Shown: positions 32,378 to 48,143 of the stretch, in pieces
Position numbering within the stretch: position 1 is the first letter of the stretch
Layout: each line of letters begins with the position of its first letter
Assembly (NCBI GenBank): GCA_963771415.1
Contig: CAVYTI010000004.1
Span: forward strand, 822,723 to 886,722
Direction of reading: 5' to 3'
DNA length: 64,000 nt
DNA from: an uncultured Acidobacteriota bacterium
Lineage (GTDB): Bacteria > Acidobacteriota > Vicinamibacteria > Vicinamibacterales > 2-12-FULL-66-21
Program-made: the position numbers and the translations under genes
The notes under the pieces: generated by a model
Seen by the model: only the letters and a program-made list of their open reading frames with translations
Told to the model about the DNA's origin: nothing
Database searches by the model: none

Positions 32378-33709
32378 CTACTTGAAGTACTTCCCCAGGA
32401 ACTGCAGGAACGCGGTCCAGTCGGCAGGCGTCGCCGCATGACCACCGGTGTGATAGTGCCAACCGAGATCTCCGGCGGTCACGGGCGTGTCGAGCGCCGG
32501 AAGGTCCGTGACGCCGAGATCCTTCTTGCCGAGTAGTCGATAGACCGGCCCGGCCGCGACCACCGCCTTGAACTCACCCACCGGGTCAGCCCACTGGTCC
32601 TGGGTGCCGCCGGTAATGAACACCGGTCGCGGCGCGCTCAACGCGATCAGCATGTGCGCATCGACCGGCATCTCGTTCCAGCGCCCCGCCCACTTCTGAA
32701 AATCGCCGGCGAACCAATAGGGAAAATTCTGCGCCATGTCATCGACCGTCTCGCCAAAATCGCGACGCGACAGGGCCGCTCCCATCTCTCCCGAACAGCT
32801 CGCGTAGACGGCGGCAATCCGCTCGTCGAGCGCAGACGCCCACAGCGCCGTCTTGCCGAGCCGCGAGTGCCCGAACAGCGCGATGTGCTGCTTGTCGACG
32901 GCCGGATCGGTCACGAGGTAATCGAGGATCCGGCTGACACCCCACGCCCAGGCGCCGATGGCCCCCCATTCCTCCGGGCCCGGTGCCGTCTTCCCCGATC
33001 CGAGCGTCGTACCGATAACCCCTTGATTGAACGTATCGATCTTGTCGGGCTGGATGTCCAGGTATCCGACCATCGCGTAGCCCCAGCCACGTTCGAGGAT
33101 CTCCGCCGCCACGGGGGGATCGGTACTCGGCGGAGGCGCCGCCCCGGCACGACCTGCCGTCGCTGGCGGAGGCGTCGAACTGCTGGCGAAATTCACGAGC
33201 AGGATGATTGGCGCCGGTTTGCCCGCGTGTGCCGGCGTGTACAACGTCACGTTGATGGTGGGCCCGTCCGCCGCCGTGCCAACTTTGCCGACAATCCGTT
33301 TCTTGACCGCCTTTCCGTCGCGGGCCGCCGGATCGGTTTCCGTCACCTGCCAGGTGACCTTCGGCGTGTTCGCCGGGATCGCACCGAAAATCGACGACTC
33401 GTACAGCTTGATGATCTCCGGTCGGCGCTCGCGCATCCACACCGCGGCGCTTCGAACCGGCTTGCCAGCCGACGACACCAGCGGGTCGGGGAGCGTGTAC
33501 GGATGCACCTTCTTCTCGTCGTAGTTCGAAACGTGACCCGTCTTCAGGGCCAGACGGATCGGATTGCCGTTGGGATCGGTCCCGAGGTTGGTGCTGCGTC
33601 CGGGACTTGAAGTCTGTGCCGTTGCCGGCGCTGGAGTGGCCGTCTGTTGAGCGGACGCCACGATTCCAGCCAGGCACACCACGGAGGTCAGGAAGGCACG
33701 GGTTTGCAT
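32378..33709 (-). CDS. secreted alpha/beta hydrolase, glucuronoyl-esterase (CE15)-like
   Basis: Signal peptide MQTRAFLTSVVCLAGIVASAQQ. ...IALFGHSRLGKTALWASALDERI is a G-x-S-R-x-GK nucleophile elbow as in CE15. GGAG lies 9 nt before ATG 33709. Confidence 0.7.
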   Translation of the reverse strand: MQTRAFLTSVVCLAGIVASAQQTATPAPATAQTSSPGRSTNLGTDPNGNPIRLALKTGHVSNYDEKKVHPYTLPDPLVSSAGKPVRSAAVWMRERRPEIIKLYESSIFGAIPANTPKVTWQVTETDPAARDGKAVKKRIVGKVGTAADGPTINVTLYTPAHAGKPAPIILLVNFASSSTPPPATAGRAGAAPPPSTDPPVAAEILERGWGYAMVGYLDIQPDKIDTFNQGVIGTTLGSGKTAPGPEEWGAIGAWAWGVSRILDYLVTDPAVDKQHIALFGHSRLGKTALWASALDERIAAVYASCSGEMGAALSRRDFGETVDDMAQNFPYWFAGDFQKWAGRWNEMPVDAHMLIALSAPRPVFITGGTQDQWADPVGEFKAVVAAGPVYRLLGKKDLGVTDLPALDTPVTAGDLGWHYHTGGHAATPADWTAFLQFLGKYFK

Positions 33710-33779
33710 ATGAAGTTTCTCCAACGGACCTGTCGATCGATCCACCGTCGCATCTTCTCAAATCGCTCGTCGTGAACGA

Positions 33780-34832
33780 CTACTTCAGCGCCGCCGGATC
33801 GATCACCACGTGCTTGATGCGCTCACGTTTCCACGTGTAGGTGACGTGTACGCGACCATCGCGCGCCTGGATCATCGCCGGATACGAATGCTCGCCGGGT
33901 GGCTCTTCGAGGACGACCGCCGATCGCCACGTGGTTCCGTCTTCCGATACGGCAATCTCCAGCTTGTCGCGCTCTGTTCTGCTCGGATTGTAGACCAGCA
34001 GGAATCGCCCGTCCGCCAGCCGCACGGCGTCGATGCCCGCGCTCGGATTGGCCAGGGACGTCGCGTGCATGTGCCCCCAGGTTTTGCCGCCGTCATCGGA
34101 CCGCGTGTCGGTGACGACGCCCTGTCGGCTGCGGCAGAGAATCTGCCACGCCGTGGGCGAATGCATCAGAATCGTTGGCTGGATCGCGCCGAACTCGGCC
34201 GGGTCGTTGAGCGGCGACGAGATCTCCCACGATTTGGGATCGGCGAGGCCGGCTGCGGTCCACTTGCCGCTGAACCGCTCCATGTGCGTCACCCAACCTT
34301 TGTCCTCCGTGCTGGAGCCGGCCAGCATCTCGCCGCCGGTCAACTCCACGGGCTTTGCCCGAATCGGCCCGAGGACACCTGGCGGGAGAGGGATTGCGTC
34401 GGACCACGTATGCCCCGCGTCGTTCGACGTGCGAGCCAGACCCCACCATTCGCTGGGGCTCGGTCCGACCTTGTAGAAGAGCACGAGCGGTCCATTGAAG
34501 GGCAGGAACAGCACCGGATTCCAGGACGGCTGCCGCGTGCCATTCGGCTGCACGCCGTTGGCGACCTCGACCGGCGTCGACCAGCCGCCCGCCTCCCGTC
34601 GTGAGACCCAGATGCCGACGTCGGGATTGCGCTCCTTGGTTCCACCGAACCACGCGGCCACCAGACCTTCGGGCGTCTCGACGATCGTGGAGGCGTGGGC
34701 GGACGCGAAGGGCGCGCGTTCAAAGATGTATTCGCTCTGGACGATCGTGGTCGGGCCAGTCTGCGGATAGCCAGCTTGCACCGCAATCGTCGTCAGCGCG
34801 ACGAGCGCGCAACCTCGCACATTCATGACCAC
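33780..34832 (-). CDS. BNR/Asp-box repeat exo-alpha-sialidase-like glycosidase (secreted)
   Basis: Signal peptide. Asp-boxes SNDAGHTWSD, SDDGGKTWG, SEDGTTW. ...ASAHASTIVETPEGLVAAWFGG... is typical of the sialidase-like beta-propeller family. Confidence 0.8.
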   Translation of the reverse strand: MVMNVRGCALVALTTIAVQAGYPQTGPTTIVQSEYIFERAPFASAHASTIVETPEGLVAAWFGGTKERNPDVGIWVSRREAGGWSTPVEVANGVQPNGTRQPSWNPVLFLPFNGPLVLFYKVGPSPSEWWGLARTSNDAGHTWSDAIPLPPGVLGPIRAKPVELTGGEMLAGSSTEDKGWVTHMERFSGKWTAAGLADPKSWEISSPLNDPAEFGAIQPTILMHSPTAWQILCRSRQGVVTDTRSDDGGKTWGHMHATSLANPSAGIDAVRLADGRFLLVYNPSRTERDKLEIAVSEDGTTWRSAVVLEEPPGEHSYPAMIQARDGRVHVTYTWKRERIKHVVIDPAALK

Positions 34833-34851
34833 GCGATCCCGAAAAAGCCGG

Positions 34852-35145
34852 CTACGCCTTGCCGAACGCGAGCCGCGCCCGCTCCGTCTGCAATTCGTGC
34901 AGGACGCGCATGACGTTATAGGCGGTCAACTCGACGAGAAGGGTCGTCACCTTCGCGTGCTGCTCATCGCTGAGATCGGGTTCCGCGGCCTTCATTGCCG
35001 CCACGAGACGTTGTTCCTGACCCTCGACTTCCGTCTTCGAGACAACGCCGTCGGCGAGTGCGCTCGTGAACGACTCGAGCTTGTTGATCCGTTCCTGAAT
35101 GATCGGGTGTTGCGCTTTATCGTCGAACCAGCTTGTGCGTGCCAC
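34852..35145 (-). CDS. 97-aa helical protein of unknown function, last gene of the PspA/AAA+ operon
   Basis: MARTSWFDDKAQHPIIQERINKLESFTSALADGVVSKTEVEGQEQRLVAAMKAAEPDLSDEQHAKVTTLLVELTAYNVMRVLHEL. It starts 9 nt after the AAA+ stop. No family recognised. Confidence 0.6.
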   Translation of the reverse strand: MARTSWFDDKAQHPIIQERINKLESFTSALADGVVSKTEVEGQEQRLVAAMKAAEPDLSDEQHAKVTTLLVELTAYNVMRVLHELQTERARLAFGKA

Positions 35146-35154
35146 GGGGACCTC

Positions 35155-36924
35155 CTACAACTCTTTCACCAGTTGCTTGAGCGCGGTCAGGCGCGCCTGC
35201 AGGGCACCGCGCGCTCCCTCGCCGGTTGTTTTCTCGAGAATCGATGGCGGCAGGAACTGGCGATCCGTGCACTCGAGGATGGCCGCCGTCTCCTGTAACT
35301 CGCGCTCGAGACCTTGCGTGGACGGCATGAATTGCACGACCACGTCGGCGAGCGACTCGCGGGTGATGTGATCGGCGCCGGCGAGCAGCGATGCGCGCCA
35401 CGCCCGCCCGACCATGCCTTCGATGTCCGCCCCCGACAGATGGCCGCGCTGCGGAATCGCCGGCACATCCTCGAGAGCCACACGTGAGCCGAGCTTCTTG
35501 GCCAGGATCACGAACATCTGACGGATCTCCGCCTCGTCGGTCGGATAGAACAGCGGAATGTGGACCTCGGCGCGTCCTTGCCGCTTCAAGTCGATCGGCA
35601 GCAGATCGGGACGCGCTGTCAGCAGCATCCACAGGATGCGTCCGCGGTACTGCGTATCCCCCATCTGCGCGGCAATCATGGCGAAGACGCGGCTCGAGGT
35701 TCCCGAGTCGCCGTCCTGCTCGCGACTGCCCAGCGCAGCGTCCGCTTCGTCCACGACGACGACGACCGGACCCATCGCCCGCAGGACCGCCAGCACGCGC
35801 TCCAGATTTCCTTCCGTCTCCCCGACATACTTCGAGCGGAAGTTCTTGAGAACGACGCAGGGGACGCCGATCTCGCCGCTGACGCACTGGGCGAGGAACG
35901 ACTTGCCAGTGCCGACCGGTCCGCAGAGCAGATACCCCATCGGCAGGCTATCGAGCGCACCTCGTTTGAGCAACGCCGCATCCTCGCGCAGTCGTGCTTT
36001 CGCCGCCTCATGGCCGACAACCGTATCGAGGGTCCACCGCGGTTCGATGAACTCGAGCAGGCCGTGACACTGGCGCTCGAGCAGCCGCTTCTTCAGCGCG
36101 CGGAACACGGTGGCGTCGAGCCGCTTGCCGCTCTCGCGCGCCGACTGGACGAGCACGTTGAGGTCGGTGAGCGAGATGCCCGCGGTCAGCGTCGCCAGCT
36201 GCGAAGCGTCGTAATCGGAAAAGTCCTTGAGCGCCGTCGTGCCGCACGACGCGGTGATGAATGTTTGGCGCGCCTTCTCGTCAGGCAGCGGTACCTCGAT
36301 TGTCGCGACGTGCGGGTTGCCGGTGAGCCGATCGCTCAGGTCGGCGAGCTTTTCGTCCACCATGACGAACGCCATGTTCAACCGCTTCACATGCGGGCTC
36401 ATCGCCCAGTTCAGCATCGTCACCAGCTGCGACGAGGCCTGCATGTTCAGGCGACCTGGCTCGCCGGAGGGAAACAGGTACGACGCCTGATCCATGATCA
36501 CCGCGAGGCTGAGCCGATCTTCCTCCGCCGCCATGATGTTGTTGCGCACGAAGCGGTCGAGCAGCGCGAAGGTGGCGGCCGGATCCTTGGGAAGGGCGCT
36601 GAGATCACCCACCTTCTTGGTGGCGAGCGCGACCATGTCCTTGAGCCGCTGCTCGTCCCTTCCGGCGAAGGCGCGCAGGCCGCGCCCGAGGTCGTAATGC
36701 AGCACCAGCGACCAGCGGCCGAACAGCTGTTCCGCCAGGAACTCCGCCAGCACGCCGTAGCGCGATTCGTCGTCATCGACGCGGAAGAGATCGTAGGTGT
36801 TGCCGTTCAGGACGAACGCGGCGGTCGTGCCCGAGAAGTACAGGTCCGCCAGCTGCGCTGACCAGGCTGGAAGCCATGCCGGCAGGTTCGCCGGACGCCG
36901 ATGCAGCTGCGAATCAAGCGTCAT
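35155..36924 (-). CDS. classical-clade AAA+ ATPase (Vps4/FtsH/Cdc48-like ATPase module) with an N-terminal region of about 320 aa of unknown function
   Basis: Walker A LLCGPVGTGKSFLA, pore loop FRSKYVGETEGNLERV, Walker B PVVVVVDEADAAL, SRH / Arg finger LLTARPDLLPIDLKRQGRAEVHIPLFYPTDEAE. 11-nt overlap with the upstream gene. Confidence 0.88.
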   Translation of the reverse strand: MTLDSQLHRRPANLPAWLPAWSAQLADLYFSGTTAAFVLNGNTYDLFRVDDDESRYGVLAEFLAEQLFGRWSLVLHYDLGRGLRAFAGRDEQRLKDMVALATKKVGDLSALPKDPAATFALLDRFVRNNIMAAEEDRLSLAVIMDQASYLFPSGEPGRLNMQASSQLVTMLNWAMSPHVKRLNMAFVMVDEKLADLSDRLTGNPHVATIEVPLPDEKARQTFITASCGTTALKDFSDYDASQLATLTAGISLTDLNVLVQSARESGKRLDATVFRALKKRLLERQCHGLLEFIEPRWTLDTVVGHEAAKARLREDAALLKRGALDSLPMGYLLCGPVGTGKSFLAQCVSGEIGVPCVVLKNFRSKYVGETEGNLERVLAVLRAMGPVVVVVDEADAALGSREQDGDSGTSSRVFAMIAAQMGDTQYRGRILWMLLTARPDLLPIDLKRQGRAEVHIPLFYPTDEAEIRQMFVILAKKLGSRVALEDVPAIPQRGHLSGADIEGMVGRAWRASLLAGADHITRESLADVVVQFMPSTQGLERELQETAAILECTDRQFLPPSILEKTTGEGARGALQARLTALKQLVKEL

Positions 36925-37834
36925 GGCGGAGCACCTCGCGCAGGTCGGTCTCGAGGATGGCCGGCGGCTCCTGCAGTTGGTCGGCGAGCCCGGTCAGATG
37001 CTGCAGCTCACTGACCGCCTTTTCCGTCTGCCTCATGCTTTCGGCAGCAGAATCCACCTGGCTGCTCAGGAAATCGGGATCCTGACGATTGACGGCGGTC
37101 TCGGCGAGCGCCTGGATCTTACCCTCGATGCGATCGAGCTCAATCGAAACGAAGTCGGCGTTCTTCTTGGCACGACCGAAGTTGTCGAGCCTGAGCTCGC
37201 CCATCGCGATGCTGTCCTGCAGCGATCGCACGACCCGCTCGTCGCCGCCGCTGCCCTGCGCCGCCGTCAGGCTCTTGTGCAGCTCCTCGAGCCGCGAGGC
37301 AATCTCCTTTTCGTTCATGGTCTGGAGAAAGCGGTCGAGCGCCGCGCGCGACAGCAGCAGCCGGAGAAACAGCCAGAGCAGGCGATCGAGCCCCGGCGTC
37401 CTGGCCTCCTCGCCGGCAGTCTGGTCGCCGGCCGCGCCCCGAACGCCGGCAGCTATCCCGCGCATTTCGAGGCAGCGCGCGTGAAGCCTCTCGAATCGCA
37501 GCCTCGAGTCGCGTGGCAGGCCGCTCAGCATCGACACCAGCGACACCGGCGGCGCCTGCGGCTGTCCTTCCGTGCCGGAAGCAGAAGTCATCGCATGAAC
37601 CTTCGCGTCGATCGCCGCTCGGAACCGAGGAATCGACACCAGTCCGGCGAGATACGTGAGCTCGGCCGCAGCGACGAGCGGCAGCAGCACGGCGGCGACA
37701 GGCGTCAACGCGGCAGCCGCGACGCCGCCGCCGAACAGCAGCAGGTTCCACCGGAACAGAAATGCCTCTTTGATGTAGTCGGGCATCCCGCCCGACCGCG
37801 GGGGTCCTGACGGATCCGGAGCCGGACTAGTCAT
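36914..37834 (-). CDS. membrane protein (TM hairpin) with a long cytoplasmic coiled-coil; unknown function
   Basis: [42 protein letters not shown] forms two TM helices, followed by heptad-rich helices (...[17 protein letters not shown]..., ...[18 protein letters not shown]...). It overlaps both neighbours (8 nt and 11 nt). ATG 37786 is an alternative start. Confidence 0.65.
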
Positions 37835-38654
37835 CGCCGGCCCGGGTGGAGGTCGCCAAGGTGTCGATCAGATCGCGGATCTCGAAGACACGCTCCATGA
37901 ACGCCGGGTCGCGCTGCATCTCCTTCGGCGGACGATCCGAGCCGGGGACCGCCATCTCCTTGAGAATCGTTCCGGGCGCGCCGGAAAACACGTAGACGCG
38001 ATCGCCGAGGTAGACCGCCTCCTCGATCGAGTGGGTGACGAAGAACACTGTCGCCTGCGCCTCTTTCCACAGGTCGACCAGCAAGGCCTGCATGTGCAGG
38101 CGGGTCGTCGGATCGAGCGCGCCGAACGGCTCGTCCATCAGGATGATTCGTGGCGACAGGATCAAGGTCCGCGCGATGGCGACGCGCTGGCGCATCCCAC
38201 CCGACAGCTCGTTGGGATATTTCGTCGCATCGCGCTTGACGTCGAGCCCCACCTTCGCGATCCATTCCCGCGCACGCTCGCGGCGATCGGCCGAGGCGAC
38301 GCCGCGGCACTCGAGGCCGAAGGCGACGTTGTCTTCGACGGTCCGGTTGTCGAACGAGGTGTAGTCCTGGAACACCATGCTTCGATCCGAGCTCGGCGGC
38401 CCCACCGGCTTCTCGCCGACGAGCACCGTGCCGGTCGTCGGCGGATGGTGTGGACGCAACCCGGCAATCAGCCTGAGCACGGTCGATTTGCCGCACCCCG
38501 ACGGCCCGAGAATCGCGATGAACTCCCCTTTGTTGGGAAGGTCCTTCACCGCGAACGTCACGTCGCGGATCACCGTCAGGTCGCCGAACTTCTTCGTGAC
38601 GTGATCGAACTGGACGATGTTCGGGAGATCAGTCGCGGCGTCGCTCATCGTCAT
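37827..38654 (-). CDS. ABC transporter ATP-binding protein (NitT/TauT-type importer)
   Basis: [18 protein letters not shown] (Walker A), [15 protein letters not shown] (signature), [13 protein letters not shown] (Walker B), FVTHSIEEA (H-loop). Start at ATG 38654 (MTMSDAATD), in an ATGA overlap with the permease stop. The upstream part of track ORF 37827..39575 is shadow. Confidence 0.9.
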
Positions 38655-39472
38655 TCTTCCACGAGGCGATGCGGGAACAGACCACGCTGGAACCAGAACA
38701 GCACGCGATCGATGCCGTACGCGAGCAGCCCGATAATGATCAGGATCAGGATGATGTGCTCCGACAGCCCGCGGCGCTGGCTGGCCATCAGCAGGTAGCC
38801 CAGGCCGTGCTGCGCGTTGATCAGCTCGGCCAGCATGATGTAGCCGAACGCCAGGCCGAACAGGTGTCGCAGGCTGTTGTAGATGTCGGGCAGGGCGAGC
38901 GCGACGAGGACCTTCCGCACGATCTGGAACGATGTCGCGCCGAGCGTCTGCGCCGCCTCGACGTAGCGGTCGGGTACGTTGACCACGGCCGAGACCGCGT
39001 CGGAGTAGACGAACGGCACGCAGGCAATGAAGATGAACATCACCTTCTGCGTTTCGTCGATGCCGAACCACAGGATCGTCAGCGGAATCAACGCGGCGAC
39101 GGGCAGGTTGCGGCCGAAAAGCGCCAGCGGGGCGCCGGCGGCCTCGAGGACGCGCCACGATCCGGCGGCGATGCCAAGGGGAACGCCGACGAGCGCGGCC
39201 AGCCCGAAACCAACCAGCACGCGCTTCAGCGTCGCGGCGATGCTCTGCAGCAGCGCCCGCTCGTTGAGCAGGCTCGGGAAGCTGCGGAGCACTTCGCCGG
39301 GGCTCGGGAGGATCACCGGGGAGATCAGGCGGTCCTCCGAACCGAGACCGGAGGTGACGAACCACCAGACGAGGACAATGACCCCCATCGCAATGGCCCC
39401 GACGAGTCGCCGCGTCATCGGCGGCGGCACGATTCGGATGGCCAGCAGCGACGACTGCGAGTCGGTCGGCAT
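38651..39472 (-). CDS. ABC transporter permease (NitT/TauT family, BPD-type)
   Basis: 273 aa with 6 TM helices. EAA-like loop ...[28 protein letters not shown]... It starts at the base directly after the stop of the SBP gene. Confidence 0.9.
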
Positions 39473-41203
39473 CTACTTCGACGCCGGCGCCGCTTCCGCC
39501 GGGTAGACCTTGACCTCTACCCGTCGATTCTTTGCGTTGTTGTCCGGATCGGACGCATCCGCGGGCCGGTCCCATCCCATCCCGGCGGTCGAGAACTGAT
39601 TGGGTTGCAACGATGAGAACTTCCGCAGGATCGCTTCCTTCACCGAGTTGGCACGATTGAGCGACAGCTCCTGGACCAGGCTCTTCGGCACCGAGGACTT
39701 CATCGAACCGTCGGTGTGCCCCTCGATCACGATGCGGGCCGCGCCGTACTGCCCGGCGAGCTTGCCGATCTCCTCGACGACGAATCCGACGTTCGGGTCG
39801 TAGAGCTCCTCGACTTCCTTGCTATCGGCCGTGCGAGTGATCTTCTTGTTCAGGTCCCAGGAATTCGGGAAGAAATGAATGACGACCGTCTTGGTGAGGA
39901 TCTCGTCCTTCTCACCCTGCACCGTACCGGCGCTCGCCGGTGCGAACTGGATGTCGTACTCATTCTTCTGGCTGGCGTATTTCGGCTCGGACCCCAGCTT
40001 CTGGATGACGGAAAAGTCCATCACCTGATCGAACGGCGTCTGCTCGGTGACCGCGTTGATCTTCTTGTAGAGGAAATACGCGGTCGTCCAGGTGCGCTCG
40101 AAGCTGGTCGGGTTGTTCTGGTTCAGGAAGAAGTCGCGGTTCTCGGCGTAGTTGGTCGAGTGGGCGTCGCCGAGCATCCCGAGCGCGTCGCTCTCGGGAA
40201 TCGAGTAGCCCGCGGCCATCAGCTTGGCGACCTTCTGCTTGCCGTCCTGCGCTTTCAGATCCTGCATCGCGTCGAAGATTCCGCGGGTGATGCCCTCGAC
40301 GACGTCCGGGTTGTCCTTGGCGAAATCGGCGCGCGCGAACCAGACGTCGGCAATGAGCTTGTTGGCGGTGGAGGTCGTGACCAGCAGCCGGTTGCCTTTG
40401 ACCTTCTCGAGGTTGTAGATATCGGGGGCCCAGCTGACGCACCCGGCAAGGCTCTTGTCGGCGTTGAACGCGGCCGCGGCCTGGAAGGCGTCCTGCGTGA
40501 ACTTGAATTCGACTTCGGCGGGCTGCACACCGGCGTTGATCAACGCGTTGAGCACGAAGAAATGCGACGGCGAGTTCTGCGCCAGCACGATCGTCTTGCC
40601 GCGCAGATCCGACATCGTCTTGATACTGTCCCGGACGACAATGCCGTCGCCGCCGTTGGACCAGTCGACCTGTTGATACACGCGCGGCATGACGCGTGAG
40701 TCCTTGCGGAGGCCTTCGAGGAACAGCGGCAGCATGTCGAGCGTCGCCCAGCCGACGTGAAGGTTGCCCGCGGCGTAGGCGTCGCGCATCGCGATCGGGT
40801 CGTCGATCAGCACGAGCTCGAGCTTGAAATCCTTGCCGCCCGGCGTCTTCCACACCTTGCCCGGCTTGAAGCCGTTGTTGGCGTAGATGATCGGGCCCCA
40901 TCCTGCCCAGACGTTGATCGCGAAGCGGACCGTCCGATCCGCCATCGGTTTGTAGCTGGAGATGCCCTTGACTTCGGGGAGGCGTGAGGCCGCGACGTAG
41001 TTGTATTCCTTGACCGTGGTGATGCCGGAGCTGTCAGGAGCTTCGGCGCCGGCCTTCATCTGCTTCATCTCGTCCGCGGTGAACTGGCCCGATTGACCCT
41101 TGGGCCCGATGGCGCCATAGCGCCACAGGGCGAGGCCGACGAGGCCGACCACCACGAACAAAACCGCGACGTAGAACGCGGGTCTGGGGCTTCCGTTCGC
41201 CAT
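39473..41203 (-). CDS. TM-anchored ABC substrate-binding protein (NMT1/SsuA/TauA-like fold) fused to a C-terminal OmpA-like peptidoglycan-binding domain
   Basis: N-terminal TM helix [20 protein letters not shown]. The central 350 aa is SBP-like ([21 protein letters not shown]..., [20 protein letters not shown]...). The C-terminus is ...[11 protein letters not shown]...[14 protein letters not shown]...GMGWDRP...NRRVEVKVY, the OmpA/MotB/Pal signature. Confidence 0.85.
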
Positions 41204-41217
41204 GGGATGAACGCTCC

Positions 41218-41973
41218 TCAGCTCTGCTTCTGTGTGGTTTTCTCAACCGCCGGCCCGAGATCCTTCGCCGTCTGCGACACCGGCGTCGTCTCCGGCGACT
41301 TCAGTCCGAGCTCGACCTCGAAGTCGTTGAGCGCCTGCTCGGCGAGCTGCGAGTGCATGCGCTCTTCCGCGTTGATCTCGGCGATGCCCTTCTGCGAGAG
41401 ATCGGCCGCGACGCGAACCTTGCCGCGGTTCTGATCGATCTTCTGCTGGATCACGGTTTCGATTTCGCCGAAGTCGGTCGTCAGGTTCATGTCGAACGTT
41501 TCCGACAGCTTGGCGATTTCCGCTTCCGCCGCGCTCATCTTCAGCTCGGCATCGTATTTCTGGATCCTTTGCCGCAGCTCGATCAGCTTTTCGTTCGCGT
41601 GCTGAATCTTCTTGAGGTTGTTGCCGTAGGCGGTCTCGTGCATCTGGAGCTGGTTCTCGTTGCTGGCCAGCTCCTCTTTCGCTTTCTGCAGCTCGAGGGC
41701 GAACTTGGCGGCGGTGGTGCGGTCGCCGGCTTTCAGGTAGGCCTTGGTTTCGGCTTCGAGTTGCTGCGCGTGCGAGCGATTCGCGGCGACCTGACGGGTG
41801 ACCCGCTCGACGAGCCCGCGATATTGCTCCAACCCGGTGCGCCCTTCCTTGAGCTGTTCGACGGCGCGGTCGTACTCATAGCGCATCTGCGCCACGGGAT
41901 CGGCCTCCCAGAAGACGTTGGCGACCTTGTTGAGTTGCGCGACGAAGGCGGACCAGAACTTGTGGAAGATCAC
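41218..41973 (-). CDS. pspA: PspA/IM30/Vipp1 family protein (bacterial ESCRT-III superfamily)
   Basis: MIFHKFWSAFVAQLNKVANVFWEADPVAQMRYEYDRAVEQLKEGRTGLEQYRGLVERVTRQ... is the characteristic N-terminal amphipathic helix plus long coiled-coil hairpin of PspA/IM30. GTG start with AAGGAGAGG upstream. Its TGA is followed immediately by the GGAG of the next gene. Confidence 0.85.
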   Translation of the reverse strand: MIFHKFWSAFVAQLNKVANVFWEADPVAQMRYEYDRAVEQLKEGRTGLEQYRGLVERVTRQVAANRSHAQQLEAETKAYLKAGDRTTAAKFALELQKAKEELASNENQLQMHETAYGNNLKKIQHANEKLIELRQRIQKYDAELKMSAAEAEIAKLSETFDMNLTTDFGEIETVIQQKIDQNRGKVRVAADLSQKGIAEINAEERMHSQLAEQALNDFEVELGLKSPETTPVSQTAKDLGPAVEKTTQKQS

Positions 41974-42130: not shown

Positions 42131-42913
42131 TCAGCGGCTCTTGCCGGGTTCCCGCTCGGCGCCCGGCGCCTCGGCAAGAATCTTGCCCTGGTAAATTCCG
42201 TCGAGCGCCGTACGCAATTCCGCCCCCGTGCCGGCGCCAATCACGTCGCCGCCGACGTTCTTGAGAAACGCGAACTTCTCGGGACTGGTATCGAACGCGA
42301 CGAAGTAGACCTGCACGGCCCCCTGGCTCTTACGGTAGATTTCCTCGGCCACATTGTCCGGACTGCGGCCGCTCGTATTCTCTCCGTCGGTCACCACGAG
42401 GAGATATTTGCGAAACACCCCGGCTCGGTACAGATCGGGGCGGGCTTCCCGCATCGCTTCGCCGATGGCGGTGCCGCCGCCCGGCCGCGGCAGGTTCGCG
42501 AGCGCGGCTTTGATCGCCGTCCGATCGTACGGCTGGATCGATCGCAGCGTCCGCACGCCGCTGGAAAAACTGTAGACGCCGATCTTGACGGGAAAATCCG
42601 GCCGTTTGGCCACGAAGGCGTCGGTCGCGTCGAGCATGTTCTCGAGCGCCTCCTGGGCAACGACGTATTTCGGTCGCGAGTCGCCAGGCGCCTTGTCGCG
42701 CATCGACCCCGACGTGTCCACCAGGATGGCGACGGCCGCGCCGAGGCCCTCTTCGACCTCGGACTGATAGGGCGCCGCCTGATCGGGTTCGGGCGCGGAG
42801 CGCGTCTCCGCGGACCGGCCGCCTGGCCGCGCTTTGCATGACAGCAGCCACGGGACCAGTGCAACGACGGCCAGGGTGGCGCACACCCGAACGGACAGCG
42901 CTCCAGCTTTCAT
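42131..42913 (-). CDS. von Willebrand factor type A (vWA) domain lipoprotein
   Basis: Lipobox LLSCK. MIDAS motif VAILVDTSGSM. ...GGGTAIGEAM..., ...LLVVTDGENTSG... ATGA overlap with the upstream isomerase gene. Confidence 0.88.
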   Translation of the reverse strand: MKAGALSVRVCATLAVVALVPWLLSCKARPGGRSAETRSAPEPDQAAPYQSEVEEGLGAAVAILVDTSGSMRDKAPGDSRPKYVVAQEALENMLDATDAFVAKRPDFPVKIGVYSFSSGVRTLRSIQPYDRTAIKAALANLPRPGGGTAIGEAMREARPDLYRAGVFRKYLLVVTDGENTSGRSPDNVAEEIYRKSQGAVQVYFVAFDTSPEKFAFLKNVGGDVIGAGTGAELRTALDGIYQGKILAEAPGAEREPGKSR

Positions 42914-46524: not shown

Positions 46525-47019
46525 ATGGTACGCGAAGTCGCCGTCTCGCAGTTCCGCATCGAAAAACGCCGTACGGATGGGCTCGTCAAGCTGTCGAGCG
46601 GCGCGTCGATCAAGGGCTGCTTCTTCATCGCCGGCAACAGCGCCCGTCACGACGGACCGGAGCGGGTCTGGGATCTCCTCAACTCGGAGGACGGCTTCTT
46701 CCCCTTCGAGGTCCACGACTCCGCCGGCGCACGAACCGTGCTCTTCAACCGCGACCACGTCGTCACGGTCGTGCTGTCGGATAACGAGGCCAGCCGGGAT
46801 TCGGGCTACACCGTCGCCACCCGGCGCGCCGTGTCGATGCGACTCTCGACCGGCGAGCAGATCACCGGCGCGGTATGCGTCTATCGACCGGAAGGGCGCG
46901 ACCGCCTCAGCGACTGGGCCCGCGAGTCGGACCTGTTCCGCTACGTCGAAAGCGGCGACGACCAGACGATCATCGTCAACAGTGCCCACATCGTCGAGAT
47001 CTCGGAGGGAACCACATGA
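46525..47019 (+). CDS. hypothetical protein with an internal duplication, translationally coupled to pilT
   Basis: MVREVAVSQFRIEKRRTDGLVKLSSGASIKGCFF...VLFNRDHVVTVVL, then ...VSMRLSTGEQITGAVCV...IIVNSAHIVEISE. Its stop overlaps the pilT ATG (ATGA at 47016-47019). Confidence 0.55.
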   Translation: MVREVAVSQFRIEKRRTDGLVKLSSGASIKGCFFIAGNSARHDGPERVWDLLNSEDGFFPFEVHDSAGARTVLFNRDHVVTVVLSDNEASRDSGYTVATRRAVSMRLSTGEQITGAVCVYRPEGRDRLSDWARESDLFRYVESGDDQTIIVNSAHIVEISEGTT

Positions 47020-48143
47020 GCACTGCGGCGATCGATCAGATGTTCCGGGCGATGTGCGATGCGGGCGCGTCGGACCTGCATCTCTGCGTCGGCACGTCGC
47101 CGATGATCCGCAAGGACGGACACATGCAGCCGCTCGACCCGGCGGCGCCGGTGCTGAGCGGCGACGACCTGGTGTCGCTCCTGGCGCCGATCATGCCGGA
47201 GAAAAACCGGAAGGAGTACGCCGATCGGCACGACACCGACTTCGCCTACGAGATTCCGGAGCTGGCCCGCTTCCGGTCGAACGTGTTCGCAGATCGCCGC
47301 GGGCCGGGTGCGGTGTTTCGTGTCATCCCGTCGAAGATCCTGACCGCCGAGCAGCTCGGTCTGTCGTCCCACATCCTGCAGTTGTGCAAATTGAACAAGG
47401 GGCTGGTGCTGGTCACCGGGCCCACCGGCTCGGGCAAGTCGACCACGCTGTGCGCGATGATCGATCACGTCAACCGGACCCGGCAGGATCACATCATCAC
47501 GATCGAGGATCCAATCGAGTTCGTGCACGAAAATCAGAAGTGCCTGATCAACCAGCGCGAGGTTCATACTCATACCGGGTCGTTCAAGGACGCGCTGCGC
47601 GCGGCGCTGCGCGAGGACCCCGACATCATCCTGGTCGGCGAGCTGCGCGATCTGGAGACGGTCGCCATCGCCATCGAAACGGCCGAGACCGGCCATCTCG
47701 TCTTCGGGACGCTTCACACCACGACCGCGGCGTCGACGGTCGATCGGATCATCGATCAGTTTCCCGCCGATCGGCAGGCGCAGATCCGCATCATGCTCTC
47801 GGAGTCGCTCCGCGGCGTGATCGCGCAGACCCTCTGTCGCCGGATCGGCGGCGGGCGGGTGGCGGCGCTCGAGATCCTGATCGCGACGCAGGCGATCAGC
47901 AATCTGATCCGGGAAGGCAAGACGTTTCAGATTCCGTCGATCATGCAGGTCAACAAGGCGGCGGGCATGGTCACGCTCAACGACGCGCTGATGGAACTGG
48001 TCACCAAGAAGCTCGTCGCGCCGGACGAAGCGCTGGCCAAGGCGGTCGACAAGCCGGGCTTCGAGTCGTTGCTGAAGCGCGCCGGGTTGAACACCGCTCC
48101 TGTCGCTGACGGGCGTCCGCGCCCGCAGCCGACATCCGCCTGA
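47016..48143 (+). CDS. pilT: type IV pilus twitching-motility ATPase PilT
   Basis: ASDLHLCVGTSPMIRKDG..., GLVLVTGPTGSGKSTTL (Walker A), IITIEDPIEF, REDPDIILVGELRD (Walker B), ETGHLVFGTLHTT, and AIRNLIREGK-like ISNLIREGK. Confidence 0.92.
   Translation: MSTAAIDQMFRAMCDAGASDLHLCVGTSPMIRKDGHMQPLDPAAPVLSGDDLVSLLAPIMPEKNRKEYADRHDTDFAYEIPELARFRSNVFADRRGPGAVFRVIPSKILTAEQLGLSSHILQLCKLNKGLVLVTGPTGSGKSTTLCAMIDHVNRTRQDHIITIEDPIEFVHENQKCLINQREVHTHTGSFKDALRAALREDPDIILVGELRDLETVAIAIETAETGHLVFGTLHTTTAASTVDRIIDQFPADRQAQIRIMLSESLRGVIAQTLCRRIGGGRVAALEILIATQAISNLIREGKTFQIPSIMQVNKAAGMVTLNDALMELVTKKLVAPDEALAKAVDKPGFESLLKRAGLNTAPVADGRPRPQPTSA

Follow-up and report, generated by a model that had tools for sequence, protein, structure and literature searches.

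A locus in the genome of an uncultured Acidobacteriota bacterium raises the question of what a binding protein of the ATP-binding cassette (ABC) transporter type does when it is fused to an OmpA-like domain and encoded directly beside a PspA family gene. The gene lies on the minus strand of a 64,000-nucleotide stretch of contig CAVYTI010000004.1 (positions 822,723 to 886,722; this whole stretch is called the window in the following), and its product is referred to here as the SBP-OmpA fusion protein (SBP, substrate-binding protein). A first-pass annotation of the window had described it as a protein that bridges the inner membrane and the cell wall, and had suggested a structural or mechanosensing role rather than simple solute capture. 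Our analysis places the gene in a conserved operon, and on balance we lean towards the view that its product is the receptor subunit of a TauABC-type importer, which has been built into a conserved envelope-maintenance operon encoding PspA and an AAA+ ATPase. The locus bears on the question of how PspA and Vipp1, which resemble ESCRT-III (endosomal sorting complex required for transport III) in bacteria, are recruited and recycled outside the PspBCF paradigm of Escherichia coli: one operon couples PspA, a dedicated AAA+ ATPase, a membrane partner, and an ABC importer that is predicted to be tethered to the wall.

Domains, ligand cleft, and predicted anchor of the fusion protein

The open reading frame (ORF) of the fusion protein contains every protein string quoted in the first-pass annotation, including NRRVEVKVY. 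The gene and its parts are as follows.

39473..41203, minus strand: SBP-OmpA fusion gene, 576 amino acids, ATG start
41123..41179, minus strand: predicted transmembrane (TM) anchor with the N-terminus inside, residues 9-27, after P-[KR]-P-x-F-[YF] and before R-[YF]-G
39989..40933, minus strand: TauA-like (NitT/TauT-type) two-lobed binding domain with a conserved acid/aromatic cleft, residues 91-405
39500..39901, minus strand: OmpA-like domain, predicted to bind peptidoglycan, residues 435-568

The proposed three-part architecture, consisting of an N-terminal hydrophobic segment, an SBP fold and an OmpA-like domain, was recovered with Pfam, NCBIfam, AlphaFold2 and Foldseek. In the Pfam searches for NMT1/SBP and OmpA domains, which the first-pass annotation had proposed as a check, both domains scored above cut-off: NMT1 (PF09084) matched residues 190-318 (E = 5e-7, 30.2 bits versus a cut-off of 20.5), with weaker Phosphonate-bd and NMT1_2 matches overlapping the same region, and OmpA (PF00691) matched residues 479-560 (E = 2e-10, 41.3 bits versus 27.2). 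The top NCBIfam matches were binding proteins of the NitT/TauT type, including the putative urea-associated family TIGR03427 (6e-22) and TauA (7e-14), while the C-terminus was matched by the OmpA-like families YiaD, Omp38, TssL, MotB, and Pal. All NCBIfam scores remained far under the equivalog cut-offs (51.8 bits versus 490 for TauA and 44.2 versus 163.5 for SsuA_fam). A sequence search of solved structures retrieved E. coli TauA (6ssy, 7e-13) and the OmpA-like domain of Acinetobacter baumannii Omp38 (3td3, 5e-11).

An AlphaFold2 model built on 31 diverse relatives reached a mean predicted local distance difference test score (pLDDT) of 91.4 and a predicted TM-score (pTM) of 0.85. It comprises a helix at residues 8-28, a disordered segment at about residues 33-59, and two alpha/beta domains, of which the first is two-lobed and the second is at the C-terminus. 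When the model was searched with Foldseek, TauA (6ssy) ranked first (E = 5e-18, TM-score 0.78 on the target), followed by SsuA, NrtA, CmpA, and proteins of the ThiY/Thi5 type. By its profile, its two-lobed type II fold and its cognate TauC/TauB-type partners, the fusion protein is a binding protein of the NitT/TauT (NMT1) type. In a library clustered at 50% identity, 2754 relatives were found at E ≤ 1e-3 and 261 at E ≤ 1e-30, and full-length relatives with both the SBP and the OmpA part were present down to 27-30% identity.

Conservation of the cleft was scored over 31 SBP-OmpA relatives (27-63% identical). The most conserved positions of the binding domain are W99 (29 of 31), G101 (30), N109 (31), T154 (28), D156 (30), D180 (28), W181 (28), S182 (31), G184 (31), G185 (29), D186 (30), a Ser or Thr at 211 (31), P212 (30), W258 (24), P260 (31), and D286 (26). 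The cleft positions D156, D180, W181, S182, G184, G185, D186, P212, W258, P260, and D286 rank among the most conserved of the whole family. In the AlphaFold2 model the conserved positions map to the ends of beta-strands and the starts of helices, the places at which type II binding proteins contact their ligands.

The pocket was then mapped by aligning the family profile to TauA and the published taurine contacts (PMC6906117); adding 21 to the chain numbering of the TauA entry gives the numbering of that paper, as checked on Gly61, Gly79, Glu106, Thr132, Trp176, Leu204, and Asp205. In TauA, the hinge residue Glu106 binds the taurine amine and its mutation abolishes binding, Asp205 also binds the amine, and the sulfonate site is formed by Gln30 together with the backbone NH groups of Gly61, Gly79, and Thr132 (PMC6906117). 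In the alignment, Glu106 corresponds to D186, Asp205 to D286, Trp176 to W258, Thr132 to the S211-P212-S213 loop, and Gly79 to D156. As judged from these correspondences, the cation-binding half of the TauA site is kept in the fusion protein, and the anion-binding half carries an acidic side chain. Because the amine-binding acids are kept and Gly79 is replaced by a near-invariant Asp, the residue chemistry points to a small solute that is cationic or carries an amine as the probable ligand, and not to sulfonate, nitrate or phosphate. Specificity for taurine or other sulfonates was rejected on the basis of the equivalog scores and of the Gly79-to-Asp replacement (D156 in 30 of the 31 relatives). 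Database names are misleading in this respect: close relatives are called [quoted passage not shown] or "OmpA family protein" at NCBI, and the system should not be annotated as a taurine, nitrate or phosphate transporter. Most cleft residues are also retained in two orphan members of the family (P0127 and P0187), so ligand binding appears to be general to the family. The inspection of the ligand pocket that the first-pass annotation had recommended hence revealed conserved cleft residues, as far as an alignment of 31 relatives to TauA can place them.

The C-terminal domain had been called a textbook OmpA_C domain, which agrees with the Pfam match and with its residues. The family profile matched 3td3 at 2.5e-25, and the motifs GHTD498 and LSLNR517 align with D55 and R70 of the 3td3 chain, which are Asp271 and Arg286 of AbOmpA (offset 216; spacing 15 in both numberings). 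These two AbOmpA residues bind diaminopimelate (DAP), as stated in PMC5974059 with reference to Park et al. 2012. Since both DAP-contacting residues are kept in the family (D498 in 30 of 31 and R517 in 31 of 31 members), it is plausible that the OmpA-like domain binds peptidoglycan.

To judge the N-terminus, we compared 78 orthologues that are 68-100% identical and stem from at least five phyla. Their consensus is M-x-x-G-x-P-[KR]-P-x-F-[YF], followed by an uncharged run, R-[YF]-G, and a poorly conserved linker rich in Gly, Ser, and Pro. In 74 of the 78 orthologues this uncharged run has exactly 19 residues, and its mean Kyte-Doolittle hydropathy is 2.55 in the window protein. Mean column identity is 0.75-0.78 over the N-terminal tail and the hydrophobic run versus 0.51 in the linker behind them. 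The N-termini of the clade of the window protein lack a lipobox, because no Cys is present there, and across the 78 orthologues no conserved AxA site follows the hydrophobic run; within it, residues 23-25 form a weak G-x-A pattern that some orthologues lack, e.g., the one at locus L077. A second clade, introduced below, has a different yet equally conserved tail (KVGPTxLGK), with an 18-residue uncharged run in 55 of 84 N-termini examined and then FRD, and a mid-helix Cys gives a lipobox-like match in 42 of these 84. Lipoprotein anchoring of the fusion protein was rejected on these grounds, i.e., the missing Cys in the window clade and the lack of conservation of the lipobox-like match in the second clade. 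A bilayer-spanning run of fixed length beside a conserved cytoplasmic motif would be unexpected for a discarded signal peptide, and we therefore regard it as likely that the N-terminal segment is a retained TM anchor with the N-terminus inside, in agreement with the uncleaved-looking helix noted in the first-pass annotation. More distant relatives have other N-termini, namely lipoboxes (P0127, P0128, and P0131) or classical signal peptides (P0129, P0152, P0159, and P0187), and the anchor is therefore a trait of particular clades and not of the whole fusion family.

A conserved operon with PspA and an AAA+ ATPase

The fusion gene is part of a cassette of eight genes on the minus strand. In addition to the fusion gene, the cassette comprises the following features, listed in the direction of transcription.

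42131..42913, minus strand: protein with a von Willebrand factor A (vWA) domain, probable periplasmic lipoprotein; LLSC near residue 26; metal ion-dependent adhesion site (MIDAS) motif DTSGS; Pfam VWA_2 7.5e-14 and VWA 3e-12
41218..41973, minus strand: PspA/IM30 family protein, 251 amino acids; Pfam PspA_IM30 1.3e-8, 35.1 bits versus a cut-off of 33.9
38651..39472, minus strand: ABC permease, TauC/SsuC/SaoP-like (BPD_transp_1); Pfam 4.9e-18; NCBIfam SaoP 6e-41 and TauC 6e-34, both under cut-off
37827..38654, minus strand: ABC ATPase, TauB-like, start MTMSD; Walker A GPSGCGKS, signature LSGGMRQR, and Walker B ILMDEP intact
36914..37834, minus strand: protein of 306 amino acids; two TM helices at the N-terminus and an extended, helical cytoplasmic domain; no match in Pfam or NCBIfam
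35155..36924, minus strand: AAA+ ATPase, 589 amino acids; active classic-clade domain at residues 326-515; Walker A GPVGTGKS, Walker B VVVVDEAD
34852..35145, minus strand: all-helical protein of 97 amino acids and unknown family, last gene of the cassette; no Pfam or NCBIfam match
34848..34865, minus strand: terminator-like hairpin overlapping the stop codon of the 97-amino-acid gene; a consensus match only, of a kind that is not more frequent in the region than in shuffled sequences

The gene order is thus vWA, PspA, SBP-OmpA, permease, ATPase, the 306-amino-acid protein with two TM helices (2-TM protein), AAA+, and the 97-amino-acid protein. PspA and the fusion gene are separated by 14 bases and the fusion gene and the permease by none; overlaps of 4, 8, and 11 bases follow at the three junctions from the permease to the AAA+ gene, and the 97-amino-acid gene starts after a gap of 9 bases. 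The permease and ATPase that the first-pass annotation had placed immediately downstream of the fusion gene were confirmed by Pfam and NCBIfam and by the abutting and overlapping genes. A longer ORF of 582 amino acids (37827-39575, minus strand) is an over-extended version of the ATPase gene: its first 307 codons overlap the permease in another frame as a high-GC artefact, and the true start is at 38654. Many long antisense ORFs in this window of 65% GC are similar artefacts.

The assignment of the remaining core proteins was examined by profile and structure searches. A profile of the PspA orthologues matched chains of Synechocystis PspA and of Vipp1 at about 2e-6. The AAA+ protein gave a sole match to Pfam AAA (PF00004; residues 331-457, 1.4e-22), residues 1-300 contain no P-loop or Walker A motif, and the domain at 326-515 is closest to chains of Cdc48/p97/VAT (about 3e-30). 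The AlphaFold2 model of the 2-TM protein is all helical (pLDDT 73), and its approximately 2800 database relatives are "hypothetical" in all sources. For a link of this protein to ESCRT-III/Snf7, hhalign against the PspA profile returned a probability of 0.2%, a profile search of the PDB gave no match to ESCRT-III, PspA or Vipp1, and Foldseek with the model gave no match at E ≤ 0.001, helical proteins with shallow alignments being hard cases for such a search. Because these three homology tests gave no support, we call it a 2-TM coiled-coil protein and not a Snf7 protein.

Conservation of the cassette was assessed in two clades, with neighbour counts covering only loci that have enough flanking sequence. 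For the first clade, which includes the window protein, one genome per GTDB species was scanned. This yielded 258 relatives, of which the best 80 (68-95% identical) were taken; they come from Vicinamibacterales, Bryobacterales/Solibacteraceae, "Deltaproteobacteria"/Haliangium, Planctomycetota, Gemmatimonadaceae, and Spirochaetales, and thus from at least five phyla. PspA is encoded directly upstream in 75 of 75 loci, and the permease (78/78), the ATPase (75/75), the 2-TM protein (71/71), and the AAA+ protein (62/62) were likewise always present, whereas the 97-amino-acid gene was found in 51 of 58 loci and the vWA gene upstream in 43 of 69, the latter being the variable first gene of the cassette. 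All 69 loci that contain the six core genes are colinear on one strand. The cassette is very common in soil Acidobacteriota and also occurs in several other phyla. Between phyla the fusion protein is 68-72% identical. Such high identity is unusual for binding proteins, and it points to constraints from several partners, horizontal spread, or both.

The second clade was obtained from an alignment-based metagenome scan and comprises 78 loci; the fusion proteins encoded there share about 47-54% identity with the window protein. The gene order is the same as in the window cassette, with PspA in about 54 of 55 loci (L180 is the one clear exception), the permease in 56 of 56, the ATPase in 51 of 51, the 2-TM protein in 46 of 47, and AAA+ in 33 of 37. 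Hence, the catalogue of fusion genes beside pspA that the first-pass annotation had called for gave a PspA gene upstream in nearly every locus of both clades, and the link is not due to chance. A second full-length SBP-OmpA paralogue precedes PspA in 8 of 42 second-clade loci; such loci are among L109-L112, L115-L118, L120-L122, L129, and L142, and PspA is flanked there by two proteins that are predicted to be wall-tethered.

More distant members differ in what they retain. The full cassette surrounds P0132 (46% identical), and at this locus (L099 15968-18226) a gene for a PMT/ArnT-like membrane glycosyltransferase (GT39/GT83-type) directly follows the AAA+ gene, which hints at envelope glycan or lipid modification. 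P0216 (32% identical) is accompanied by PspA, permease, and ATPase. In a Spirochaete clade (about 32% identical; L084-L089) the order is SBP, SBP-OmpA, permease, ATPase, and then vWA (at about 13.3-14.5 kb), and PspA and AAA+ were not detected in these loci by tblastn. The presence of the vWA gene in this clade, in which PspA and AAA+ were not found, makes its product a possible direct partner of the SBP-OmpA/ABC module. At one of these loci (L085 7986-8639, minus strand) a divergent gene for a membrane protein of the Halogen_Hydrol/XpaC family lies upstream of the cluster. Members of this family are associated with TelA-type stress genes in Bacillus.

An operon including an SBP+OmpA protein has been described in silico before (Ravi et al. 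2024, mSystems 9:e00847-23; PMC11237479; bioRxiv 2020). The order given there is PspA, "PBPB+OmpA", ABC permease, ABC ATPase, "TM+Snf7", and inactive-AAA+/AAA+, with OGG56892.1 from Candidatus Handelsmanbacteria as the example, and it was proposed that OmpA binds peptidoglycan and that PBPB binds the solute of the linked ABC transporter (PMC11237479). Gene order and domain content are the same as in the window from the PspA to the AAA+ gene, and the window gene is another member of this computationally recognized system. This was the only account of the system that our literature search found, and it consists of one example row and a few sentences; the example comes with no mention of the vWA lipoprotein or the 97-amino-acid gene, and the account contains no pocket analysis. 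The equivalent of the 306-amino-acid gene is named "SIG+TM+Snf7" and interpreted as a divergent Snf7 (PMC11237479), a label that was not reproduced here. Our data add neighbour counts for two deep clades, support for the retention of the TM anchor and the conservation of its cytoplasmic tail, a case from individual residues for a conserved non-sulfonate cleft, the DAP-binding pair, and the recurrent vWA lipoprotein and 97-amino-acid gene.

Proposed uptake, sensing, and attachment of the receptor

The transporter looks functional, because the ATPase motifs are intact and the permease and ATPase co-occur with the fusion gene in both clades. Together with the conserved cleft that aligns with the TauA contacts, this argues against the proposal that solute capture has been given up: cleft, permease, and ATPase all look functional. 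The role suggested by the first-pass annotation thus stands in part. Architecture, the appearance of the anchor, the DAP-binding residues, and the link to pspA were supported, whereas the phrase "rather than simple solute capture" was not supported. In the best-supported model, a receptor for a small cationic solute that is tethered to wall and membrane would serve the TauBC-type module, and the output would be uptake, signalling, or both.

Under the reading as an importer receptor, a short cytoplasmic tail with the conserved motif would lead into a single TM helix that stays uncleaved (residues 9-27). On the periplasmic side, about 30 residues would form a flexible linker, with a conserved, ordered N-terminal extension behind it. 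The TauA-like binding domain would come next, and the OmpA-like domain would hold on to peptidoglycan non-covalently via D498 and R517. The cleft probably takes a small cationic or amine-bearing solute and not a sulfonate, and the loaded binding domain would dock on a TauC-like permease dimer, with the TauB-like ATPase driving uptake. With the receptor held at the membrane as well as at the wall, the solute would be taken up or detected at a fixed membrane-wall interface. Coupling to the stress proteins would consist of co-expression, and probably co-localization, with PspA, the 2-TM coiled-coil protein, and AAA+, which would remodel or repair the inner membrane. In this reading, the domains, the conserved residues, and the synteny are observations, whereas topology, ligand class, transport, and the coupling to PspA are inferred from them.

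Several points weigh against this reading. The pocket was placed by sequence alignment, and the preference for a cation follows from residue chemistry only. With small residues at 23 and 25 (G-L-A), cleavage by signal peptidase I is in principle conceivable, and Ravi et al. label the N-terminus of the protein "SIG" (PMC11237479). P0127 and P0187 are orphans with no adjacent transporter, and P0152 (on a metagenome contig; L103 4203-8599) is flanked by PspA and AAA+, and the 16.8 kb read there contain neither a permease nor an ABC ATPase. The N-terminus of P0152 is a classical signal peptide, and part of its pocket has changed (W99 to R, D180 to S, and G185 to N). The orphans and the P0152 locus show that the binding protein can exist without a linked importer. 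Finally, our literature search found no experimental work on any member of this system. Concerning the ABC-less locus, a genome scan with P0152 and the first metagenome scan revealed no further loci with PspA, SBP-OmpA, and AAA+ that lack the ABC genes, and the alignment-based scan of 78 loci gave permease and ATPase in every locus with enough downstream flank. We treat L103 as a lone outlier because these scans gave only the full cassette.

The orphans and L103 also speak for a different explanation, according to which the protein is a sensor or tether without net nutrient uptake that reports wall-membrane distance, strain or a wall-derived ligand to PspA and AAA+, either via its N-terminal tail or with the ABC module as a signal transducer. 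The conservation of the cytoplasmic tail motif across phyla, in which the adjacent periplasmic linker does not share, would fit such a role, as would the high between-phyla identity of the whole protein, which suggests several partners, and a double anchoring that would immobilize the receptor. On the other side, the cleft has the conservation and the acidic character that one would expect if a ligand is indeed bound, the ABC-less arrangement was seen once among scans that otherwise gave the full cassette, and the permease, present in 78 of 78 first-clade loci beside an intact ATPase in 75 of 75, has a type I importer fold (BPD_transp_1) and not one of the mechanotransmission type. Taken together, we consider a sensor or tether without uptake rather unlikely.

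A more far-reaching and doubtful idea is that the doubly anchored SBP is the input device of envelope surveillance, which would sense a wall-derived or stress-related cation, or a change in the geometry of wall and membrane, and trigger or position PspA polymerization and AAA+ remodelling via the ABC module and the N-terminal tail. If this were true, the operon would encode an ESCRT-like repair system of bacteria whose sensor lies in the periplasm and takes the wall as its reference. Working out the ligand and the coupling would show the periplasmic or wall cue of this type of PspA and, maybe, whether import joins membrane repair.

It is quite unlikely, in our judgment, that the protein is a periplasmic, wall-bound SBP whose N-terminus is a cleaved Sec signal peptide, with the OmpA-like domain as its sole tether. 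G23 and A25 offer a possible cleavage site within the hydrophobic run, the architecture was annotated as "SIG+PBPB+OmpA" by Ravi et al., and distant members (P0127, P0128, P0129, P0131, P0152, and P0159) clearly have classical signal peptides or lipoboxes. However, the uncharged run has a constant length of 19 residues and a high hydropathy, some orthologues (e.g., that at L077) do not have the candidate site, and conservation of the n-region motif across phyla would be unusual for a segment that is discarded. An ordinary nutrient importer, e.g., for sulfonate or nitrate, that lies beside pspA by chance is very improbable, although its three ABC components (SBP, permease, and ATPase) are of types known from the NitT/TauT family. 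The gene neighbourhood appears to refute it already, since synteny with PspA, the 2-TM protein, and AAA+ is preserved in Acidobacteriota, Myxococcota/"Deltaproteobacteria", Planctomycetota, Gemmatimonadota, Spirochaetota, and the second clade at about 50% identity, and the overlapping or abutting operon genes, the NCBIfam scores far under the equivalog cut-offs, and the Asp at the sulfonate-binding position also speak against it.

Relation to known systems and further genes of the window

The reading as a receptor of a TauABC-type importer can be compared with E. coli TauABC (6ssy, 6st0), as residues ~90-400 of the fusion protein match TauA best in both structure and sequence, the partner proteins are TauC- and TauB-like, and both amine-binding acids of TauA have counterparts (Glu106 in D186 and Asp205 in D286). 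In contrast to the fusion protein, TauA is soluble in the periplasm and has no OmpA domain, it has Gly79 where the fusion family has a near-invariant Asp, and its genomic context is sulfur assimilation instead of stress response.

With proteins of the MotB/PomB/TolR-Pal/YiaD type the fusion protein shares the (predicted) topology that bridges inner membrane and wall, as well as the conserved Asp and Arg of the OmpA-like domain. Unlike these proteins, the fusion protein has a whole SBP domain between its anchor and its OmpA domain. MotB has a proton-conducting TM Asp, whereas TM residues 9-27 of the fusion protein contain no Asp or Glu, and no MotA- or ExbB-like gene is present in the cassette, in contrast to the situation for MotB/PomB-type proteins. 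Identity as a MotB/PomB-type stator was rejected for these two reasons.

Similar to archaeal and eukaryotic ESCRT-III with Vps4 and to bacterial PspA/Vipp1, the window operon encodes a PspA family protein and a classic-clade AAA+ ATPase. The AAA+ domain is closest to D2 domains of the Cdc48/p97 type, however, and no MIT domain was detected in the protein; a second ESCRT-III-like protein in the operon, as the published label of the 306-amino-acid protein would imply, was not reproduced here. To our knowledge, no ESCRT system includes an ABC importer. A function in anti-phage defence was also considered and rejected, as PADLOC gave only weak generic matches (ZorB/MotB, IetA, and TerY).

Outside the cassette, the gene at 46875-48143 on the plus strand, about 4 kb away, codes for a PilT-like retraction ATPase of type IV pili (Walker A GPTGSGKST) and appears unrelated. 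Downstream, the region 32378-34832 (minus strand) encodes two proteins that look secreted; by eye, one resembles a BNR/sialidase and the other an esterase-type hydrolase, and both seemingly lie outside the conserved cassette.

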